DNA of 64,000 nucleotides from the NCBI GenBank assembly GCA_034428795.1, contig DAOUHF010000071.1:19256-83255 (forward strand), read 5' to 3'. Made by a program: the position numbers and the translations under genes. The notes beneath the pieces are model-generated. The model did no database searches. It saw only the letters and a list, made by a program, of their open reading frames with translations, and was not told where the DNA came from. Each line of letters starts with the position of its first letter. Positions within the stretch are counted from its first letter, which is position 1. This DNA is from Dehalococcoidia bacterium. Lineage in GTDB: Bacteria > Chloroflexota > Dehalococcoidia > Lucifugimonadales > UBA3495. This document shows, piece by piece, positions 7,492-58,653 of the stretch.

Positions 7492-7588
7492 CTAGGGAAC
7501 ATCTGAACAATTCCCTTCCCCCCGATGGGGGAAGGTTAGGATGGGGGCTTTCGCCTCAATGACCATAACTTGTTCAGAGGTTCCTTAG
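7492..7588 (+). mobile_element. MITE-like inverted-repeat element, copy 1 (short variant, 97 bp)
   Basis: cTAGGGAACATCTGAACAA...internal CCCTTCCCCCCGATGGGGGAAGGTTAGGATGGGGG...AACTTGTTCAGAGGTTCCTTAg. It lacks the ~30 bp internal segment present in copies 2-4. Confidence 0.8.
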
Positions 7589-7820: not shown

Positions 7821-8003
7821 ATGGGCGCACTTCCCAAAAAGAAATTGACCCGTGCCCGGAAGGGACGAAGGCTGGCATCCTACCGGCTCCAGCCGGTTCA
7901 CGCCGCCCAATGCACGCGATGCCGAAGCGCCAAGCGTCCCCATACCGCCTGCCCCGCTTGCGGGTATTACCGGGGGCGGCAAATGGTGGAGGGCTCGGCT
8001 TAG
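7821..8003 (+). CDS. rpmF: 50S ribosomal protein L32
   Basis: 60 aa, ALPKKKLTRARKGRR N-terminus, CxxC...CxxC zinc knuckles (CTRC...CPAC), GGAGG RBS, follows yceD. Confidence 0.85.
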   Translation: MGALPKKKLTRARKGRRLASYRLQPVHAAQCTRCRSAKRPHTACPACGYYRGRQMVEGSA

Positions 8004-14907: not shown

Positions 14908-15579
14908 TTGCTCATTGACCTGCATTGCCACACCTACCCCAAGTCAGACGACAGCTTCATGAACGTCGACGACCTGATACACGAGGCCAAGGCCCTGGGA
15001 CTGGACGGAGTGTGTCTGACCGAACACGACATCTTCTGGGCCGCCGGAGAAGTGATGGAGCTCTCGCGCCGCCATGACTTCCTGGTGCTGCCGGGTTGCG
15101 AGATCAACACCGACCCCGGACACGTCCTGGTGTTCGGCCTCGAGCGGTACGAGTTCGGCATGCACCGTCCCGAATACCTCAAGGCGTTGGTGGAGCAGGC
15201 CGGCGGCGCGATCATCGCCGCCCATCCCTACCGCCGCCGGTTCTTGCCCGGTCCGGCCGAAAAGACCGGGGCCAGGGAAGAAATGCTGGAGCGGGCCAGC
15301 AAAGACCGATTCTTCCAATACTGCCAGGCCATAGAGGGCCTCAACGGACGGGGCACCACGGAACAGAACCGGTTTTCCCAAGACCTGGGCGACCGTCTGT
15401 CCGCTCCTTTCACCGCTGGCAGCGACGCCCACCGCGTGGAACAGCTTGGGACTGCTGCCACCGAGTTCCCGGAGAATGTCCGCGGATTGGACGATCTGAT
15501 CGCTTGTCTGCGCGGCGGGGAATACCGTCCAGTGGAATTGCGGCCCAATGGGCTTGTGGCCGGCAGCCGGACAGAGTAG
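14908..15579 (+). CDS. PHP-domain metal-dependent phosphoesterase
   Basis: MLIDLHCHTYPKSDD...GVCLTEHD...AAHPYR...GSDAH motifs. TTG start. Confidence 0.75.
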   Translation: MLIDLHCHTYPKSDDSFMNVDDLIHEAKALGLDGVCLTEHDIFWAAGEVMELSRRHDFLVLPGCEINTDPGHVLVFGLERYEFGMHRPEYLKALVEQAGGAIIAAHPYRRRFLPGPAEKTGAREEMLERASKDRFFQYCQAIEGLNGRGTTEQNRFSQDLGDRLSAPFTAGSDAHRVEQLGTAATEFPENVRGLDDLIACLRGGEYRPVELRPNGLVAGSRTE

Positions 15580-16553
15580 TGGCAATCCTTACGATAGATA
15601 ACCTCCACGTGGAATTCCGTACCCGGGGGGGGACGGTCAAAGCCCTCAACGGAATATCCCTGACTCAAGAGGAAGGGCAGGTCTACTGTGTGGTGGGCGA
15701 GAGCGGGGCGGGAAAGAGCACCTTGGCCCTGGCTATCATGGGACTGCTGCCCCACGCCGCCAGTGTCATGCAGGGAAGCATCTCTTTCCAGGGCGCCGAC
15801 CTGCTGCGGTCGAGCCCGGACTATATCCGCCGACTCCGGGGCCATGAAATCTCCATGGTGTTCCAGGACGCCCAAGCGGCCCTGAATCCGGTGGAGCCCA
15901 TCGGCTCTCAACTGGAAGAGGTGATCCTGCAACACAGCAACCTCTCCCTGAGAAACGCCAACCGGTTGGCCCAAGAGACGCTGCACGAAATGGGACTGCC
16001 CGACCCGCGCCGGGTGATGGGACAGTACCCGTTCGCCCTGAGCGGCGGGATGTGCCAGCGGGTGATGATGGCAATAGCCTTGGTGTTACGTCCCAAGCTG
16101 CTCATTGCCGATGAACCGACCTCGGGCCTTGACGTCACCCTCCAGGCCGACATCCTGGAGAAACTTCGCAACCTGGTCCGGGAACAAAAGTCATCAATTC
16201 TGCTCATTACCCACGACATGGGCGTCGTGGCTTCAATGGCCGACAAGGTGGGAGTCATTTACGCCGGCACCATGGTGGAGCATGCCGACGTTATCCCGTT
16301 GTTCCACCGGGCCCAGCATCCCTACACCTGGTCGGTGCTCCAGTCCTTGCCGCGGCTGGACGAGCCTGGGCGCCGGATCCAGCCACTTCCCGGGGCCCCA
16401 CCGGATATGATGATCCTCCCGGATGAATGCCCATTCCTGCCCCGGTGCTTCAAGGCGATGGGTCGATGCCGCACCGATCCCCGGCCCAGCCTGGCGGAGG
16501 TGGAGCCGGACCACTACGTTGCCTGCTACAATCCGGTGCTGCCGCCAGACTAA
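15579..16553 (+). CDS. ABC transporter ATP-binding protein, OppD/DppD type (no cognate permease or SBP in window)
   Basis: GTG at 15579 overlaps the PHP stop (TAGTG). GESGAGKST Walker A, LSGGMCQR signature, LLIADEPTSGLD Walker B, C-terminal oligopeptide-type HPYT...CPFLPRC domain. The stop codon TAA (16551-16553) lies inside MITE copy 2. Confidence 0.85.
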   Translation: MAILTIDNLHVEFRTRGGTVKALNGISLTQEEGQVYCVVGESGAGKSTLALAIMGLLPHAASVMQGSISFQGADLLRSSPDYIRRLRGHEISMVFQDAQAALNPVEPIGSQLEEVILQHSNLSLRNANRLAQETLHEMGLPDPRRVMGQYPFALSGGMCQRVMMAIALVLRPKLLIADEPTSGLDVTLQADILEKLRNLVREQKSSILLITHDMGVVASMADKVGVIYAGTMVEHADVIPLFHRAQHPYTWSVLQSLPRLDEPGRRIQPLPGAPPDMMILPDECPFLPRCFKAMGRCRTDPRPSLAEVEPDHYVACYNPVLPPD

Positions 16554-16679
16554 GGAACCTCTGAACAAGTTATGGTCATTGAGGCGAAAGCCGAAATCTC
16601 GGAGGAGAGCTTAACGGTATTACCCCCATCCTAACCTTCCCCCATCGGGGGGAAGGGACTTGTTCAGAGGTTCCCTAAC
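16550..16679 (-). mobile_element. MITE-like inverted-repeat element, copy 2 (129 bp)
   Basis: cTAAGGAACCTCTGAACAAGT...ACTTGTTCAGAGGTTCCCTAa. Terminal inverted repeats of ~22 bp. Orientation is opposite to copy 1. Confidence 0.85.
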
Positions 16680-18119: not shown

Positions 18120-18178
18120 GCAGGGTCACCTCGGGCGGTTGGTGTGGGACCTGGTTTCCGTCGGCGGGCAGCCTTTGA

Positions 18179-18514
18179 TTACAGCCCAGTCTCCAGCGTA
18201 GTCAACAACTCATTCAAACGCTCGTCCACGCCCTGCGCCGAGCGTTTCGCCGCCTGGAACAACCGCACGAGTAACTCATTCTCATCGTCGAAACCGCCGC
18301 GATACTGAAGGAATTCCAACTCGGTCCCCTTTTCGTCGAATATGGCAAGCTTGATCAATGTTCGATTCGCAGTGTCCGCTTGAGAAGAAATCATCACTGA
18401 CAAGTTACCGATAACGGCTGAAAAGAAGTTCGGATTTACTGAAGTTTTCCACGGTATCCTTCTTTCCCTGGTGCGTTCCATCAATTTTACGGCGATTTCA
18501 TTCATACCGGCCAT
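18179..18514 (-). CDS. Hypothetical protein (paralog 2 of a tandem pair), family not recognised
   Basis: Start placed at ATG 18512-18514 (MAGMNEIAVKLMERT...). The track ORF extends to 18544. About 47% GC in a 60-bp sample I counted, versus an estimated >60% elsewhere. Confidence 0.6.
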   Translation of the reverse strand: MAGMNEIAVKLMERTRERRIPWKTSVNPNFFSAVIGNLSVMISSQADTANRTLIKLAIFDEKGTELEFLQYRGGFDDENELLVRLFQAAKRSAQGVDERLNELLTTLETGL

Positions 18515-18518
18515 GTCA

Positions 18519-18650
18519 TTACCCCACTGTGGCGGTTTCGGCACCGCGTGCCACCGTACGGGCCTGTAATGCCACTCGTATCGCGAACACCAGTCCTATG
18601 CTTGATACGACAAGACCAGCCAAGCTGACAAAACTGCCCCACATATCCAT
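18519..18650 (-). CDS. Possible 43-aa single-pass membrane peptide
   Basis: My translation: MDMWGSFVSLAGLVVSSIGLVFAIRVALQARTVARGAETATVG*. The stop lies 4 nt upstream of the ATG of paralog 2. Too short for the ORF track and has no homology evidence. Confidence 0.3.
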   Translation of the reverse strand: MDMWGSFVSLAGLVVSSIGLVFAIRVALQARTVARGAETATVG

Positions 18651-18657
18651 TACGGAC

Positions 18658-18786
18658 CTAGGGAACCTCTGAACAAGTTATGGTCATTGAGGCGAAAGCC
18701 GAAATCTCGGAGGAGAGCTTAACGATATTACCCCCATCCTAACCTTCCCCCATCGGGGGGAAGGGACTTGTTCAGATGTTCCCTAG
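18658..18786 (-). mobile_element. MITE-like inverted-repeat element, copy 3 (129 bp)
   Basis: Near-identical to copy 2 and in the same orientation. Its right-hand terminal CTAG region contains the TAG stop (18783-18785, minus strand) of the neighbouring 136-aa gene. Confidence 0.85.
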
Positions 18787-29040: not shown

Positions 29041-29952
29041 ATGGAATTATCCGGCAATTGGTTTATGGAGAGCGTATCACCGGACCTGGCAGTAATGCTG
29101 CGGGTCCGGGAGATTCTCTATTCCGGGGAAACACCCTACCAAAAGGTCGAAATCATCGATTCCGATGTTTTCGGACGCACCCTCGTTCTCGACGGAAAGA
29201 CCCAGTCCACCGAACGGGACGAGTTCGTGTACCATGAGACCTTGGTACATCCGGCGATGCTCTGTCATCCGGACCCGCGGCGGGTGTTCATCGGCGGGGG
29301 CGGCGAGGGCGCCACCCTCCGGGAGGTCTTGGCCCACCGAACGGTCCAGGAAGCAACTATGCTGGACTTGGACCAGGAGGTGGTGGATCTGTGCCGCCGC
29401 TATTTACCCAACCATCACCAAGGCAGCTTCGACGACCCCAGGACCAGTCTGTTCCATCAAGACGCCAGGGGCTTTCTGGCGGAGGATGGAGAGGGGTACG
29501 ACGTCATCATCCTCGATCTGGTTGATCCCCTTGAGGGCGGCACCGCCTTCCTGCTATACACCGAAGAGTTCTACCGGATCGCGAGGGCGCGACTCAACAG
29601 CGGCGGTGTTTTGGTAACCCAATCGGGACCGGCCGGACTGCCCAACCACCAGGAATGCTTTACCACCATCTACAACACCCTGCGGCGCGTTTTTGTCCAC
29701 GCCGCCGGGGCCCAGGTGCACGTTCCGGCCTTTCAGACCCTTTGGGGTTTCACCCTGGCCTCCGACTCGCCACTTCTTCCGGCGGGGGGGCAGCCGGTAG
29801 ATGAATTGCTGGCCGACAGGGTAAGCAAAGGGCTGAAGCACTACGACGGCGAGACCCATCGCGGCATGTTCGCCCTCCCCAAGTACCTCCGCAACGGACT
29901 GGAAAACGAGACCCGCGTCAACCGGGATGCCGCCCCGGTGTTCATGGTCTAG
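29041..29952 (+). CDS. speE: Spermidine synthase (polyamine aminopropyltransferase)
   Basis: YQKVEIIDSDVFGRTLVLDG, GGGEGATLREVL, DVIILDLVDP. Confidence 0.9.
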   Translation: MELSGNWFMESVSPDLAVMLRVREILYSGETPYQKVEIIDSDVFGRTLVLDGKTQSTERDEFVYHETLVHPAMLCHPDPRRVFIGGGGEGATLREVLAHRTVQEATMLDLDQEVVDLCRRYLPNHHQGSFDDPRTSLFHQDARGFLAEDGEGYDVIILDLVDPLEGGTAFLLYTEEFYRIARARLNSGGVLVTQSGPAGLPNHQECFTTIYNTLRRVFVHAAGAQVHVPAFQTLWGFTLASDSPLLPAGGQPVDELLADRVSKGLKHYDGETHRGMFALPKYLRNGLENETRVNRDAAPVFMV

Positions 29953-30056
29953 GCAAGAATCCCGGCCCCGGCGCGGAAACCCTCCCTCCTACCGAAAGAT
30001 TTCGTACACCGTCGCGGTGAAGGTTCCGGTCGCGCCTCGTGTCGCGGCTGCCATAT

Positions 30057-30191
30057 TAGGAAACATCTGAACAAGTCCCTTCCCCCAGATGGGGGAAGGT
30101 TAGGATGGGGGCCGCTAAGCTCTCCTCCGAGATTCCGGCTTTCGCCTCAACGACCATAACTTGGACCATAACTTGTTCAGAGGTTCCTTAG
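30057..30191 (+). mobile_element. MITE-like inverted-repeat element, copy 4 (135 bp, with internal 12-bp duplication gaccataacttg x2)
   Basis: TAGGAAACATCTGAACAAGTCCCTTCCCCCAGATGGGGGAAGGTTAGGATGGGGG...AACTTGTTCAGAGGTTCCTTAg. Same orientation as copy 1. Confidence 0.85.
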
Positions 30192-30204: not shown

Positions 30205-32229
30205 CTACGGCTGGATCAGCACGCGCATCGAGCCGTCGGTGTCTTTGCGTTGGGTCAAGAGTTTGTGGCCTGCTTGTTCCGACCACAGGATGACGTCGTA
30301 GATGTTCAGGGCGTCGGCGAGGATGGCCTCGACGAAGGACTGGCGGTCGAGGTCCATCTGGTAGGTGATGGCTGCGATCACCCCGGCGCAACTCTTGCCG
30401 CGGCCATCGATGACCACCCAGCCGCTGTTGCCGTCGCTGATTATGGGGGCCATATCGCCGTGGACGCTGATTTCGCCGCTTTTCCGCATGTCCAACTGGC
30501 GTTTGAACTCCGCCACCGCTTCCCAAGCCACGGCCCGGCCGCGGTCGCCGTTGGAGCAGACGGCGCCGCGCACCCCGACGATGTCGGGATTGATGCGGGC
30601 CAGTTCGTCCAAGTCGTTGATTTTGAGGTGACCGGAAAGCGCGGTGCTCATGCCCATCTGCTTGCCCCGGAGCACTATGTCGCGTAAGACAGGCTCCGGC
30701 ATGAAGTCAAAAAGGTTCCGGCCGTCCTTGGTCAGGGTGTCGATCAGGAACCCGTCACACTCGCCGTCCTTGGCCAGTTGCACCATGCAAAGCGGATCCA
30801 GGCCGTCCTCGTAGAGCTCGTTGTCGGCGAACACCGAGCCGATGAGCTTGGTATTGAACCCCTCCAGCGCCCGCCTGGCCTGCCGCAGCACATCGACGGC
30901 GGTATCGTAGTCGCCGCGCTGGAACCCTACTTTCACCGACGTGGCGTCCAGGTGGGCAGCCGCATAGACGGCCATCGCCACTGTGCCGGGCTGGTTGGGC
31001 ACCACGCCCAAGGTGACGCTGACATGCTTCTCCACCGGGATTATGCCCCGCACCTGGCGCACGATTGAAGGATGTCCCGACCCGACCAGGGCCTCCTGCA
31101 GATTCTTGACGTCGACGACGTCGGCCCCGCCCTGCTCCGCTTCCAGGGCTTCGTCAACGTCCTGGACGCTCACCATCAGCAGCATCCCGGCAGCGAAATT
31201 GTTGTTGCCGTCCAGCCAGGCGGCCCTAGGTTGTGCCGCCGCAGCCACGGGCATCCGGGGTTTCAGGGGCTCAAGCTCGTCCCGCATTTGCTCTTTCTCC
31301 TGTGGGGTAAGGTCGATCAGGGGCAGGCGGGGAGGCCCGGCGGCCAGTCCCATCAACTCCGCCCAATGTTTCACCATGGAAACGGGCAGTGCGCCGTTGT
31401 ACTTGTCGAGCGTCCGGGTCCACCAGGTGTCAGAAAGCTCGTTCAACCGGCGTATGTGCCGGTCGTAGAAGGCCTCGTCCAAGTCGCCCTTGGTGGCCCG
31501 GTCGATAAACTGGACGTAGTAATTGGCCCCCGGAACGTCGAACCGCCAGTCTGAGGTGTTGGAGAACATCACCTGTTGCTGGAAGCCCAATTCCTGCGCT
31601 TTGAAGAAGATCCACTCGTCGGGAGTGCTTATGATTGCTTCCTTGCCCAGGGTCAGGTGGGCCTCGATGGAGATTTGCTGATTAAAGCTGGCCTCTTTGA
31701 TGCCGACGACGTTGGGGATGCGGCAGAGCCGCTCCAGGCCGTTGGTGCTCATCACGATCCCGAACTGGGGCGAGTTGTAGAACATGATGGCCAGGTTGGT
31801 ATTCTCGGCCAGAAGCCGAACGTACTCAACAACCTGGTCCTCGGTCTTCGTCACCATGAAGGGCGGAGCCACGACCAGCAGGTCGAACCCCTGGTCCTCG
31901 GCGTGCCGGGCAAGAGACAGCATCTCGGGGGCCGAAGAATCGGTAACGTGGGCAGCAATGAGCCAGTCACCAGCGGACTCCTCGGCCACCGTGTCCATGA
32001 CGTCGATGCGTTCGTCGTGGGTCAGGCTCCAGAACTCCCCCATACCCCAGGTGCAGCCGGCCCCGGTGGTGCCGAGGCTTCTGATGTGTCGGATGTTGCG
32101 CTTCATCCCTTCCCGGTCGAAGCGGTCATCCGGGGTGAAGGGGGTCACCAGAGTCGTCCATTGGCCCTTAAGGGCCTCCCACGCCCACGCCTGGGCCTCG
32201 TGTTTCGAGTAAGTAGCCATGACATGCAC
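30205..32229 (-). CDS. Three-domain fusion: DapA/NAL-family class I aldolase + MfnB-like (DUF556, 4-HFC-P synthase family) + TusA-like sulfur-carrier domain
   Basis: N-terminal ~330 aa has VTPFTPDD...VVGIKEAS (Schiff-base Lys context). Middle has LLMVSVQDVDEALEAEQGGADVVDVKN, KVGF, IDTLTKDGRNLFDF, ALSGH, DIVGVRGAVCSNGDR. C-terminal ~75 aa has IDGRGKSCAGVI...AGHKLL...MRVLIQP. AAGGAG RBS. Confidence 0.8.
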   Translation of the reverse strand: MHVMATYSKHEAQAWAWEALKGQWTTLVTPFTPDDRFDREGMKRNIRHIRSLGTTGAGCTWGMGEFWSLTHDERIDVMDTVAEESAGDWLIAAHVTDSSAPEMLSLARHAEDQGFDLLVVAPPFMVTKTEDQVVEYVRLLAENTNLAIMFYNSPQFGIVMSTNGLERLCRIPNVVGIKEASFNQQISIEAHLTLGKEAIISTPDEWIFFKAQELGFQQQVMFSNTSDWRFDVPGANYYVQFIDRATKGDLDEAFYDRHIRRLNELSDTWWTRTLDKYNGALPVSMVKHWAELMGLAAGPPRLPLIDLTPQEKEQMRDELEPLKPRMPVAAAAQPRAAWLDGNNNFAAGMLLMVSVQDVDEALEAEQGGADVVDVKNLQEALVGSGHPSIVRQVRGIIPVEKHVSVTLGVVPNQPGTVAMAVYAAAHLDATSVKVGFQRGDYDTAVDVLRQARRALEGFNTKLIGSVFADNELYEDGLDPLCMVQLAKDGECDGFLIDTLTKDGRNLFDFMPEPVLRDIVLRGKQMGMSTALSGHLKINDLDELARINPDIVGVRGAVCSNGDRGRAVAWEAVAEFKRQLDMRKSGEISVHGDMAPIISDGNSGWVVIDGRGKSCAGVIAAITYQMDLDRQSFVEAILADALNIYDVILWSEQAGHKLLTQRKDTDGSMRVLIQP

Positions 32230-32442: not shown

Positions 32443-32853
32443 TCAGTAACCGTCATTCGAGCCTAATTGATCGTTCGAATCCTGGGGAATCAATCGGGCG
32501 ACCGCCTCAATGGTTCGTCTGGCGATCGGGACAGCTGCCTCAAGGTCTGCCAGTTCCACGTCGACATCATAAAATCCTTTATGCAAGATTTCCGCTGTGG
32601 AAAACCCCGCCAGGAGGTAAGGGTCGTCCGTCTCGCTAGATACTTGGATCGCGAAATTCTTCAGCCTCCGGTGCCGGGCGACGTCTATGCCGCGCACCGC
32701 TGCCAGCGCATGAAACACTTGGGTCACGCTTCCCCAGAACATTTCCCCGGCCTTGGAAACTTCTTCGTTCCTCAGCGCCTCCAGGCCGTTCTCAAAGTAT
32801 TGCTCGGAATGCTCCATGTGCCTTCGGACTTTAGTTGCCAATTCGGACGTCAT
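32443..32853 (-). CDS. PaREP1-like (HEPN-superfamily) protein
   Basis: 136 aa. EVSKAGEMFWGSVTQVFHALAAVRG and AEILHKGFYDVD match my recollection of PaREP1 features (AAxKxW...; LHxxFY). Lower GC by eye. Confidence 0.6.
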   Translation of the reverse strand: MTSELATKVRRHMEHSEQYFENGLEALRNEEVSKAGEMFWGSVTQVFHALAAVRGIDVARHRRLKNFAIQVSSETDDPYLLAGFSTAEILHKGFYDVDVELADLEAAVPIARRTIEAVARLIPQDSNDQLGSNDGY

Positions 32854-56678: not shown

Positions 56679-56828
56679 TTAGGAAACCTCTGAACAAGTC
56701 CCTTCCCCCCGATGGGGGAAGGTTAGGATGGGGGCGCCGGCGTTCATTGCATTGCTGACCTCCCTAATCTACCCTCCGGGATTCCGGCTTTCGCCGCCAT
56801 GTCGCTGACTTATTCGGAGGTTCCTTAG
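56679..56828 (+). mobile_element. MITE-like inverted-repeat element, copy 5 (150 bp, divergent right arm)
   Basis: TAGGAAACCTCTGAACAAGTCCCTTCCCCCCGATGGGGGAAGGTTAGGATGGGGG...GACTTATTCGGAGGTTCCTTAg. The internal part differs from copies 2-4. Confidence 0.75.
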
Positions 56829-58268: not shown

Positions 58269-58653
58269 TTAGTTACTTGCCAACCCTTCCGCGCCCCGGA
58301 TGTAGTCCGCCGTCGCCCGGATATCCGCAATAACGGCTTTTTCGGGTTCGCAGTCCCCGTCGTAAAAATATGCGCCATGGAGGTTGTGGGCTATTGAGCC
58401 GTATCGGACTGCTAAATCGATGAAAGCCTAACCCTCGTTACGCAAGTTTCGGATTCCACGCCGCGTTTGCCCAGTCGTGCGGGGTTCCTGCCCCGTTCCG
58501 GGCCAGGACCAGAGCGTCGGTGGCCCGCTTTGTCGCTCCCCAGGCCTTCTCGGCTGCGTTACGCAGCTTACCGCGCTCCAACTCTTCCAGGGCGTCCTCG
58601 TAAAGCACCCAGGCATCAACGAATATGGCGGTTACTTGTTCTGTTTCTAACAC
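58269..58653 (-). pseudogene. PaREP1-like (HEPN-superfamily) gene disrupted by a frameshift
   Basis: The N-terminal 71 codons (58438-58653: ...KLRNAAEKAWGATKRATDALVLARNG...) end at TAA. The expected C-terminal half (AFIDLAVRYGSIAHNLHGAYFYDGDCEPEKAVIADIRATADYIRGAEGLASN*) is open in a different frame from 58427 to 58269. Confidence 0.6.

Follow-up and report, generated by a model that had tools for sequence, protein, structure and literature searches.

Many bacterial MITEs (miniature transposable elements with inverted repeats), such as Nezha and RUP, are of the IS630/Tc1-mariner type and are associated with a TA duplication. These IS630-derived MITEs, together with the Correia elements of Neisseria, are 100 to 150 bp in length, have inverted ends, reside in intergenic regions, have the potential to form long hairpins, and include TA within their target. 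The same general features characterize the subject of this report, a family of five short repeats (herein called c1 through c5) in a 64,000-nucleotide window, meaning the whole stretch of DNA analyzed, from a Dehalococcoidia bacterium (GCA_034428795.1, contig DAOUHF010000071.1, positions 19,256 to 83,255). However, Nezha, RUP, and Correia duplicate TA only, whereas the window elements are associated with a 4-bp duplication and with IS5 as the cognate transposase type. The REP/BIME and ERIC repeats of enterobacteria are also short, intergenic, and palindromic and are located near gene ends, but the window elements share no sequence similarity with them and have no match in Rfam.

Closer parallels are found among elements related to insertion sequences (ISs) of the IS5 family. 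MITEs with IS5-family ends are known, including BrickBuilt/MITEPgRS of Porphyromonas gingivalis and the ATR element of Neisseria, which has been linked to ISNme1 (PMC4596501). Like the window family, these elements are small and non-autonomous, their inverted ends match those of IS5-family ISs, and they carry no transposase remnant. They differ in their ends (GAGACC...), which come from other subgroups of IS5, and in having duplications that vary or are unclear. In the window family, both the ends and the YTAR duplication are typical of the IS5 group proper, and clean empty sites exist. Escherichia coli IS5 and its group have in common with the window family the terminal sequence, the YTAR duplication, and full-length relatives of 1137 to 1195 bp. 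The window elements differ from IS5 in that they are only 89 to 142 bp in length, are non-coding, share no sequence with it except at the ends, and reside in an uncultured Chloroflexota host. We conclude that the five repeats very probably constitute one MITE family that keeps only the 17-bp ends of an IS5-group IS and that is served in trans by an IS5-family transposase.

A first-pass annotation of the window had described five copies of a MITE-like, non-autonomous element in both orientations, bounded by terminal inverted repeats (TIRs) of ~22 bp. All five copies are present at the positions it gave, apart from two one-base corrections (16679 becomes 16678, and 30057 becomes 30056), and when aligned they share common boundaries. 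An nhmmer profile built from the five copies recovers exactly c1 through c5 in the window and no others. The ends are indeed inverted, although the inverted repeat proper spans 17 bp rather than ~22 bp. It has the form GGAAC...GTTCC (sequence GGAACCTCTGAACAAGT) and is present at all ten termini with zero to three mismatches. In this window of 62.4% G+C, a terminal 18-mer is matched ten times when three or fewer mismatches are allowed, yielding five inward-facing pairs, compared to an expectation of 0.02 from shuffled sequences. Likewise, an internal hairpin module is matched five times versus an expectation of 0. As judged by the hairpin module, c1, c4, and c5 are oriented on the plus strand and c2 and c3 on the minus strand, and thus both orientations are represented as described. 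The copies are too short to code for a transposase, and no open reading frame (ORF) of 35 or more amino acids lies wholly within c1. The annotation reported no transposase in the window, and in agreement with this we found no IS5-type transposase in the 64 kb. A search of the PLSDB plasmid collection with the element produced no match, and a scan of JGI metagenomes for the exact hairpin module produced 0 matches.

The TA present on both sides of every copy had been attributed to target duplication by an IS630/Tc1-mariner-type transposase. TA does lie next to each end, but this description is incomplete because the common flank is a 4-base direct repeat conforming to YTAR, which is present at four of the five window copies. 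YTAR is a documented duplication motif of IS5 (PMC10359306). We scanned one genome per species with the pattern TARGRAACNTCTGAACAAGT, which identified at least 118 stretches of DNA from many phyla (loci L007 to L124; other sequences compared herein are also designated by L numbers). After removal of six redundant strain copies of c5, the pairing of ends within these loci gave 70 TIR pairs among the matches listed, and all counts of end pairs, complete elements, and MITE families below likewise refer to the matches listed. Because the pattern fixed TAR on one side only, the first base and the opposite side provide independent observations. Identical flanking 4-mers border 43 of the 70 non-redundant pairs, which derive from many genomes. 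In 21 of these 43 the repeat is non-palindromic and direct (CTAA..CTAA in 9 and TTAG..TTAG in 12), and the inverted arrangement was seen in none of the 70 pairs. The lack of inverted cases indicates that the flanking four bases are not part of the inverted repeat. A MITE moved by an IS630/Tc1-mariner transposase that duplicates TA would explain the TA beside each end in every copy. However, a 2-bp duplication would require that the outermost bases of the element vary in step with the flanks, and the consistently direct arrangement of the non-palindromic repeats argues against this mechanism.

The same scan revealed that the GGAACCTCTGAACAAGT end bounds many unrelated MITE families of 74 to 520 bp. 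YTAR duplications accompany each family, and the hosts include Casimicrobiaceae, Pseudomonadales, Thiotrichaceae, Acidobacteria, and Prochlorococcaceae, among other groups. Some of these MITEs are arranged back to back, for example at positions 1810 to 2132 of L014.

Related genomes reveal what several of the insertion sites look like when unoccupied. At the c5 site, a relative whose ProS protein is 97% identical (L131) carries the sequence ...CAAGCCTG-CTAA-TGATCGAGCC... with a single CTAA, whereas the window reads ...CAAGTCTG-CTAA-[142 bp]-CTAA-TGATCGAGCC.... Three additional relatives (L133, L134, and L135) have 90 to 96% nucleotide identity to the window. At the c2 site, L133 and L135 carry a single CTAA, read as TTAG from the opposite strand, and L134, the most distant of the three, carries TCAG. 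At the c3 site, all three carry a single CTAG. No family copies were found in the 47 kb read from these three relatives. In relatives with 81 to 84% ProS identity (L128 to L130), the divergence of the ispG-proS spacer is too great for it to be used as an empty site. The insertions at c4 and c5 are present in every strain 99.7 to 99.9% identical to the window that covers those sites, which includes three strains of the same species for c4 (L125 to L127) and six of six strains for c5 (L001 to L006).

As judged from these alignments, the exact empty sites in relatives at 90 to 97% identity show that c2, c3, and c5 are three recent insertions. The orthologous empty sites at c2, c3, and c5 do contain a single target, as expected for a mobile element, but the target is YTAR and not TA alone: the single YTAR of an empty site is found twice, as a direct repeat, where the element is present. 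Since the bases on either side of TA are duplicated as well, the involvement of a TA-duplicating IS630/Tc1-mariner transposase is barely credible.

The terminal sequences point to the same type of partner. The left end of E. coli IS5 (GGAAGGTGCGAACAAGTCCCT), taken from an annotated plasmid copy of 1195 bp (L137), shares 17 of 21 positions with the MITE end GGAACCTCTGAACAAGTCCCT, or 13 of 17 without the next four bases. Moreover, the MITE ends fit the IS5-group end form GGAAGGTGCGAA(C/T)AAG. Nine end pairs from the scan lie 1137 to 1195 bp apart and have the same ends and YTAR duplications. These full-length elements are located in Dehalococcoidia metagenome-assembled genomes (MAGs; L009, L027, L069, L089, and L110) and in Proteobacteria (L028, L033, L035, and L113). 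The left end of the L009 element is identical to the TIR of c2 that lies far from the hairpin module (GGAACCTCTGAACAAGT). The elements in L009 and L027 each carry one ORF with DUF772 and DDE_Tnp_1 domains. The L009 protein scores 339 bits on the NCBIfam model NF033581 'IS5 family transposase', which has a cut-off of 140, and is 55 to 57% identical to E. coli IS5 InsH over 96 to 99% of its length. A homologue with 97% identity to it is named IS5 family transposase by NCBI. When the L009 transposase is used as a tblastn query, all nine complete elements match with 44 to 81% identity over nearly the whole protein, and several elements cut by a contig end match as well. Thus, instead of the IS630-type partner that had been proposed, full-length elements with the same ends encode an IS5-family transposase wherever their coding sequence was examined or was matched by tblastn, although IS630-family genes as such were not searched for. 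Another full-length copy with a CTAG duplication (L136) is found on a 4.0-Mb contig whose sample of origin also yielded one of the relatives, but it is not tied to the lineage of the window; no MITE copy was found in the 21 kb surrounding it.

The mover could instead be a DDE transposase of another family that has IS5-like ends and a 4-bp target, such as an IS1182-like or ISNCY-like enzyme. Such an explanation gains from the fact that the partner was not seen in this genome, and from sub-threshold matches of the IS5-type protein to the IS1182 and ISNCY models. We consider it highly improbable given that all nine complete elements match the L009 IS5-type transposase, that the L009 and L136 proteins score far above the cut-off of NF033581 and far below those of the other models, and that the MITE end is closest to that of IS5 itself. 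A different transposase gene, with DDE_Tnp_1_assoc and DDE_Tnp_1 domains, occupies positions 1 to 546 of L003 (ENA ERZ28763704 contig_3), a position that in the other strains is taken by an amidase gene lying upstream of rpsB. We take this domain combination to be typical of ISAs1.

Several observations weigh against the assignment of the family to an IS5-type partner. No IS5-type transposase was found in the ~110 kb of DNA available from the species represented by the window, and an attempt to place such a gene on a contig of this species yielded no match. The partner may therefore be absent from the species, and the family may have lost its mobility. Past the 17 to 21 terminal bases, the MITE has no sequence in common with the full-length ISs, and thus its derivation from any one IS by internal deletion is hypothetical. 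Furthermore, the flanks of c1 are mismatched and its site is rearranged, so that this copy does not represent a clean insertion, and the copies per genome obtained from the TARGRAACNTCTGAACAAGT scan are lower bounds. Weighing these points together with the ends, the target duplications, and the empty sites, we favor an IS5-family transposase acting in trans, and we infer both that such an enzyme is or was present in this species and that it has moved these copies. The original recognition of the repeats as MITEs is right, and their assignment to IS630 with TA duplication is wrong.

In the mechanism that we envision, the copies would be non-coding deletion or mosaic derivatives of an IS5-group IS. 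The GGAACCTCTGAACAAGT ends would be recognized by an IS5-family DDE transposase provided in trans, which would excise or copy the element and insert it at YTAR through staggered cuts, leading to the duplication of four bases. The 121-, 128-, and 89-bp copies are internal-deletion derivatives of a 142-bp master element. This master form exists as two subfamilies that are ~82 to 85% identical, designated A (L076, L084, and L098) and B (c5 and L087), and the subfamily A copies are 94 to 100% identical to one another. Both c2 and c3 belong to subfamily A and have an identical internal deletion of 21 bp, although they are inserted at different places; c2 is 100% identical to the corresponding parts of the 142-bp copy in L098. 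The presence of the 21-bp-deletion form at two independent sites shows that the deleted form itself transposed. In c4, a 26-bp internal deletion is accompanied by a 12-bp tandem duplication (GACCATAACTTG).

The family is not confined to the window, because additional copies (L076, L084, L087, and L098) reside on three other contigs of a MAG from the same species. This MAG is linked to the species by a 99% HolA match on its 595,836-bp contig. In L087, a partial copy at positions 7822 to 7879 that includes only the module and a truncated end directly precedes a subfamily B copy at positions 7891 to 8000, in a tandem or nested arrangement. The ProS protein encoded in the window is identical to those on metagenome-assembled contigs of up to 3.1 Mb, and its more distant homologues carry the names SAR202 cluster, Dehalococcoidia, or Chloroflexota. 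The copies elsewhere in the genome of the species, along with the three exact empty sites, agree with the earlier description of a MITE-like, non-autonomous, TIR-bounded element. As the annotation also indicated, it does not belong to a named family. It is an undescribed IS5-derived MITE family from an uncultured SAR202-type Dehalococcoidia lineage, and is an ordinary kind of element apart from its BoxC-like internal motif.

The c1 site has a more complex history. Where the window carries positions 7495 to 7584, two relatives have unrelated segments of 128 to 179 bp (L133 20025 to 20203 and L135 19937 to 20064). This unrelated segment and the mismatched flanks of c1 point to a rearrangement rather than a simple insertion, and suggest a deletion or a recombination event between two elements. 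The segment in the relatives ends with ...TTCGGGTTCCAGG-TTAG, which bears a faint likeness to a decayed end of the same type.

All five copies lie in intergenic gaps at gene ends, as had been reported. The first copy, c1, begins 2 nucleotides past the yceD stop codon (7489) and precedes rpmF (7821 to 8003) by 232 nucleotides. The left CTAA of c2 holds the TAA stop codon of an ABC-transporter ATPase ORF (15096 to 16553), and the right CTAG of c3 (18783 to 18786) holds the stop codon of a DUF4286 gene (TAG on the minus strand). The c4 copy is located between the converging ends of speE (stop at 29952) and a gene encoding a DHDPS/4-HFC-P synthase fusion (stop at 30205), whereas c5 is located 17 nucleotides upstream of the proS start codon (56662, minus strand) and downstream of a terminator-like hairpin of ispG (56934 to 56911).

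Such a distribution is best explained by target supply together with selection. YTAR occurs 135 times in the window, compared to 567 times expected from base composition (a 4.2-fold under-representation), and it reaches 5.0 per kb in the DNA outside long ORFs versus 1.5 per kb inside them (3.4-fold). Indeed, the stop codon forms YTAR in 14 of the 52 long ORFs of the window. Only ~27% of the remaining YTAR sites in the window lie outside ORFs, compared to five of the five insertions, which argues for selection against disruptive insertions. In addition, YTAR contains the stop codons TAA and TAG, and therefore, when the element enters a YTAR that forms part of a stop codon, the duplication restores the stop and the gene is preserved, as with c2 and c3. 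These two copies illustrate how an element that targets YTAR can land harmlessly in stop codons.

Placement at gene ends, strong predicted hairpins on both strands, and an internal module that is conserved across phyla would also be expected of a structured element selected by the host, such as a terminator, an mRNA stabilizer, or a protein-binding site. Such an element, resembling REP/BIME, would have spread by recombination or through a REP-associated tyrosine transposase. For both strands of the window elements, the predicted fold (z-scores of −3.6 to −6.7) is a long hairpin in which the inverted ends pair to close the structure. However, this fold is dominated by the transposon ends, which form the stem, and no T-run follows the hairpin on either strand of the element. 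The reading as an intrinsic terminator, which requires both hairpin and T-run, was rejected for this reason, and the sole terminator-like site near c5 (56934 to 56911) lies outside the element. Also rejected was the reading as a known RNA family: at gathering scores, Rfam models match only a tRNA elsewhere in the window, and a search over c5 at E = 1 returned nothing on the element. Precise insertion, a 4-bp duplication, and 17-bp inverted ends constitute the signature of cut-and-paste DDE elements, and to our knowledge REPs make no 4-bp target duplication and lack TIRs with target duplications. We therefore regard a host-selected origin as very unlikely, although secondary co-option may have occurred at single loci, for example by c5 in the proS leader. 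The long-hairpin potential of the MITE is a by-product of its inverted ends and its internal module, which is BoxC-like. The homologous E. coli motif was reported to be without promoter and terminator activity (PMC4666352).

The BoxC/PIT/TMECO repeat of E. coli and other Proteobacteria is abundant in many bacteria, and CD or NMR work on the oligonucleotide has shown that it adopts a triplex in vitro (Holder et al. 2015, PMC4666352). The same 2015 survey reported no association of the motif with transposons, phages, plasmids, transposases, or integrases (PMC4666352). The hairpin of the window MITE, followed by TTAGGATGGGGG, corresponds to a motif of this class. Its module consists of, in order, a C-rich block (CCTTCCCCC), a CGAT loop, a G-rich block (GGGGGAAGG), a TTA loop, and a mirror block (GGATGGGGG), which in c2 are read on the minus strand. 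Its purine block mirrors the second block with a T opposite A at position 4, and the oligonucleotide CCTTCCCCCCGATGGGGGAAGGTTAGGATGGGGG is a candidate triplex former. We applied a published rule for triplex motifs, which calls for a C-rich block followed by its complement and then by a mirror purine block that forms G*G, A*A, and T*A contacts, with loops of 3 to 6 and 3 nucleotides (PMC4666352). A motif finder based on this rule flags all five window copies. E. coli BoxC and the MITE module share a common design of a 9-nucleotide C-rich block, a 4-nucleotide loop, a 9-nucleotide G-rich complement, a TTA loop, and a 9-nucleotide mirror block. Their block sequences differ, being CCTTCCCCC/GGGGGAAGG/GGATGGGGG in the MITE and CCCTCNCCC/GGGNGAGGG/GGGNGAGGG in TMECO, and the literal TMECO pattern (CCCTCNCCC N3-6 GGGNGAGGG N3 GGGNGAGGG) accordingly finds no match in the module. 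By its sequence, then, the module is a variant of the BoxC/PIT/TMECO class and not TMECO itself, and a triplex structure is predicted for it.

Canonical TMECO motifs are also found within elements of this type. In environmental Gammaproteobacteria, MITEs of ~150 bp with IS5-type ends and YTAR duplications have a core composed of two paired TMECO motifs of the canonical form. When the core of one of these MITEs was compared to E. coli genomes, the median number of matching places was 17 per genome. A profile built from seven of these MITEs matches four E. coli BoxC pairs with E values of 1e-16 to 1e-19 over model positions 15 to 124. No recognizable IS5-type ends are present at the E. coli BoxC pairs, where both BLAST and profile alignments stop at the core. 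Among end pairs of MITE size, the triplex finder flags 11 of 62, representing three families, wherein copies within a family are not independent. In the DNA sampled, the density of triplex motifs is 0.94 per kb inside MITEs versus 0.018 per kb outside (~50-fold). We also considered the gabT-gabP spacer of E. coli, which carries a BoxC pair in 1305 of 5426 complete genomes; most of the others, including K-12 derivatives, have REP sequences there (L132 301 to 390 versus L163). We rejected this polymorphism as a clean BoxC empty site, since the BoxC pair is replaced by REP sequences and the comparison is uninformative.

One tentative possibility is that IS5-type MITEs are a vehicle that spreads BoxC/PIT/TMECO-class motifs within and between phyla, in which case the TIR-less BoxC pairs of E. 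coli would be decayed or domesticated cores. This proposal is based on four findings: in a Chloroflexota genome, the motif directly adjoins the end of a MITE for which three recent insertions are proven; canonical BoxC pairs form the core of the gammaproteobacterial MITEs; the profile of those MITEs matches E. coli BoxC pairs; and the motif is ~50 times denser inside such MITEs than outside them in the DNA sampled. We hold it to be possible rather than probable because the ends are missing in E. coli and because it would be just as simple for MITEs to have captured a motif that already existed in the host. In the literature searched, we found no paper that links BoxC to MITEs or to IS5.

Table 1. 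Coordinates of the MITE copies and their parts. Positions are those of the window unless a locus designation is given.
Feature	Position	Strand	Description
c1	7492-7588	+	89-bp element at 7496-7584; 53-bp internal deletion; mismatched flanks CTAG/TTAG
c1 module	7513-7547		
c2 (focal copy)	16550-16678	-	121-bp element at 16554-16674; CTAA repeats at 16550-16553 and 16675-16678
c2 TIR, far from the hairpin module	16554-16570		17 bp
c2 TIR, adjoining the hairpin module	16658-16674		17 bp; with the next four bases, 17/21 compared to the E. coli IS5 left end
c2 internal BoxC/PIT/TMECO-class module	16623-16657	-	Identified by the rule-based triplex-motif finder
c3	18658-18786	-	121-bp element at 18662-18782; flanks CTAG/CTAG
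c3 module	18731-18765		
c4	30056-30191	+	128-bp element at 30060-30187; flanks TTAG/TTAG
c4 module	30077-30111		
c5	56679-56828	+	Full-length 142-bp element at 56683-56824, subfamily B; flanks TTAG/TTAG (CTAA on the minus strand)
c5 module	56700-56734		
Gammaproteobacterial MITEs with BoxC core	L018 3944-4095; L091 185-335; L106; L117		Also on JGI contigs, for example L144, L155, L157, and L162

Other features of the window were noted near the MITE copies. Directly beside c3 is a 509-bp segment of 52% G+C (18153 to 18661) that is absent from the relatives L133 to L135 and that represents another insertion at this position, unrelated to c3. It contains an orphan ORF of 121 amino acids on the minus strand (18179 to 18544) with no match in Pfam, NCBIfam, or PADLOC. 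The gene that converges on c4 (30205 to 32229, minus strand) is a single ORF of 674 amino acids that fuses DHDPS-family and 4-HFC-P synthase (methanofuran-pathway MfnB-like) domains. The window also includes two small PaREP1-domain genes, located at about 32443 to 32853 and about 58270 to 58650. One PaREP1 gene is called as either 127 or 71 amino acids among strains that are 99.7 to 99.9% identical (L001 8011 to 8394 versus L002 8010 to 8225).

For the lineage itself, the family can serve as a strain marker and as an aid to annotation that explains several intergenic hairpins, and it provides evidence for a recent burst of transposition. The wider point concerns the cargo of these MITEs. BoxC-class repeats are abundant and conserved in many bacteria, and their origin and spread have so far been unexplained. 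If the proposal that IS5-type MITEs disseminate such motifs is true, it would provide both an origin and a dissemination mechanism for repeats that have been known for 30 years, and the 'genomic instability' seen at BoxC loci would reflect the insertion, excision, and decay of transposons. The presence of the motif inside mobile IS5-type MITEs of two phyla makes the origin and spread of BoxC directly testable.

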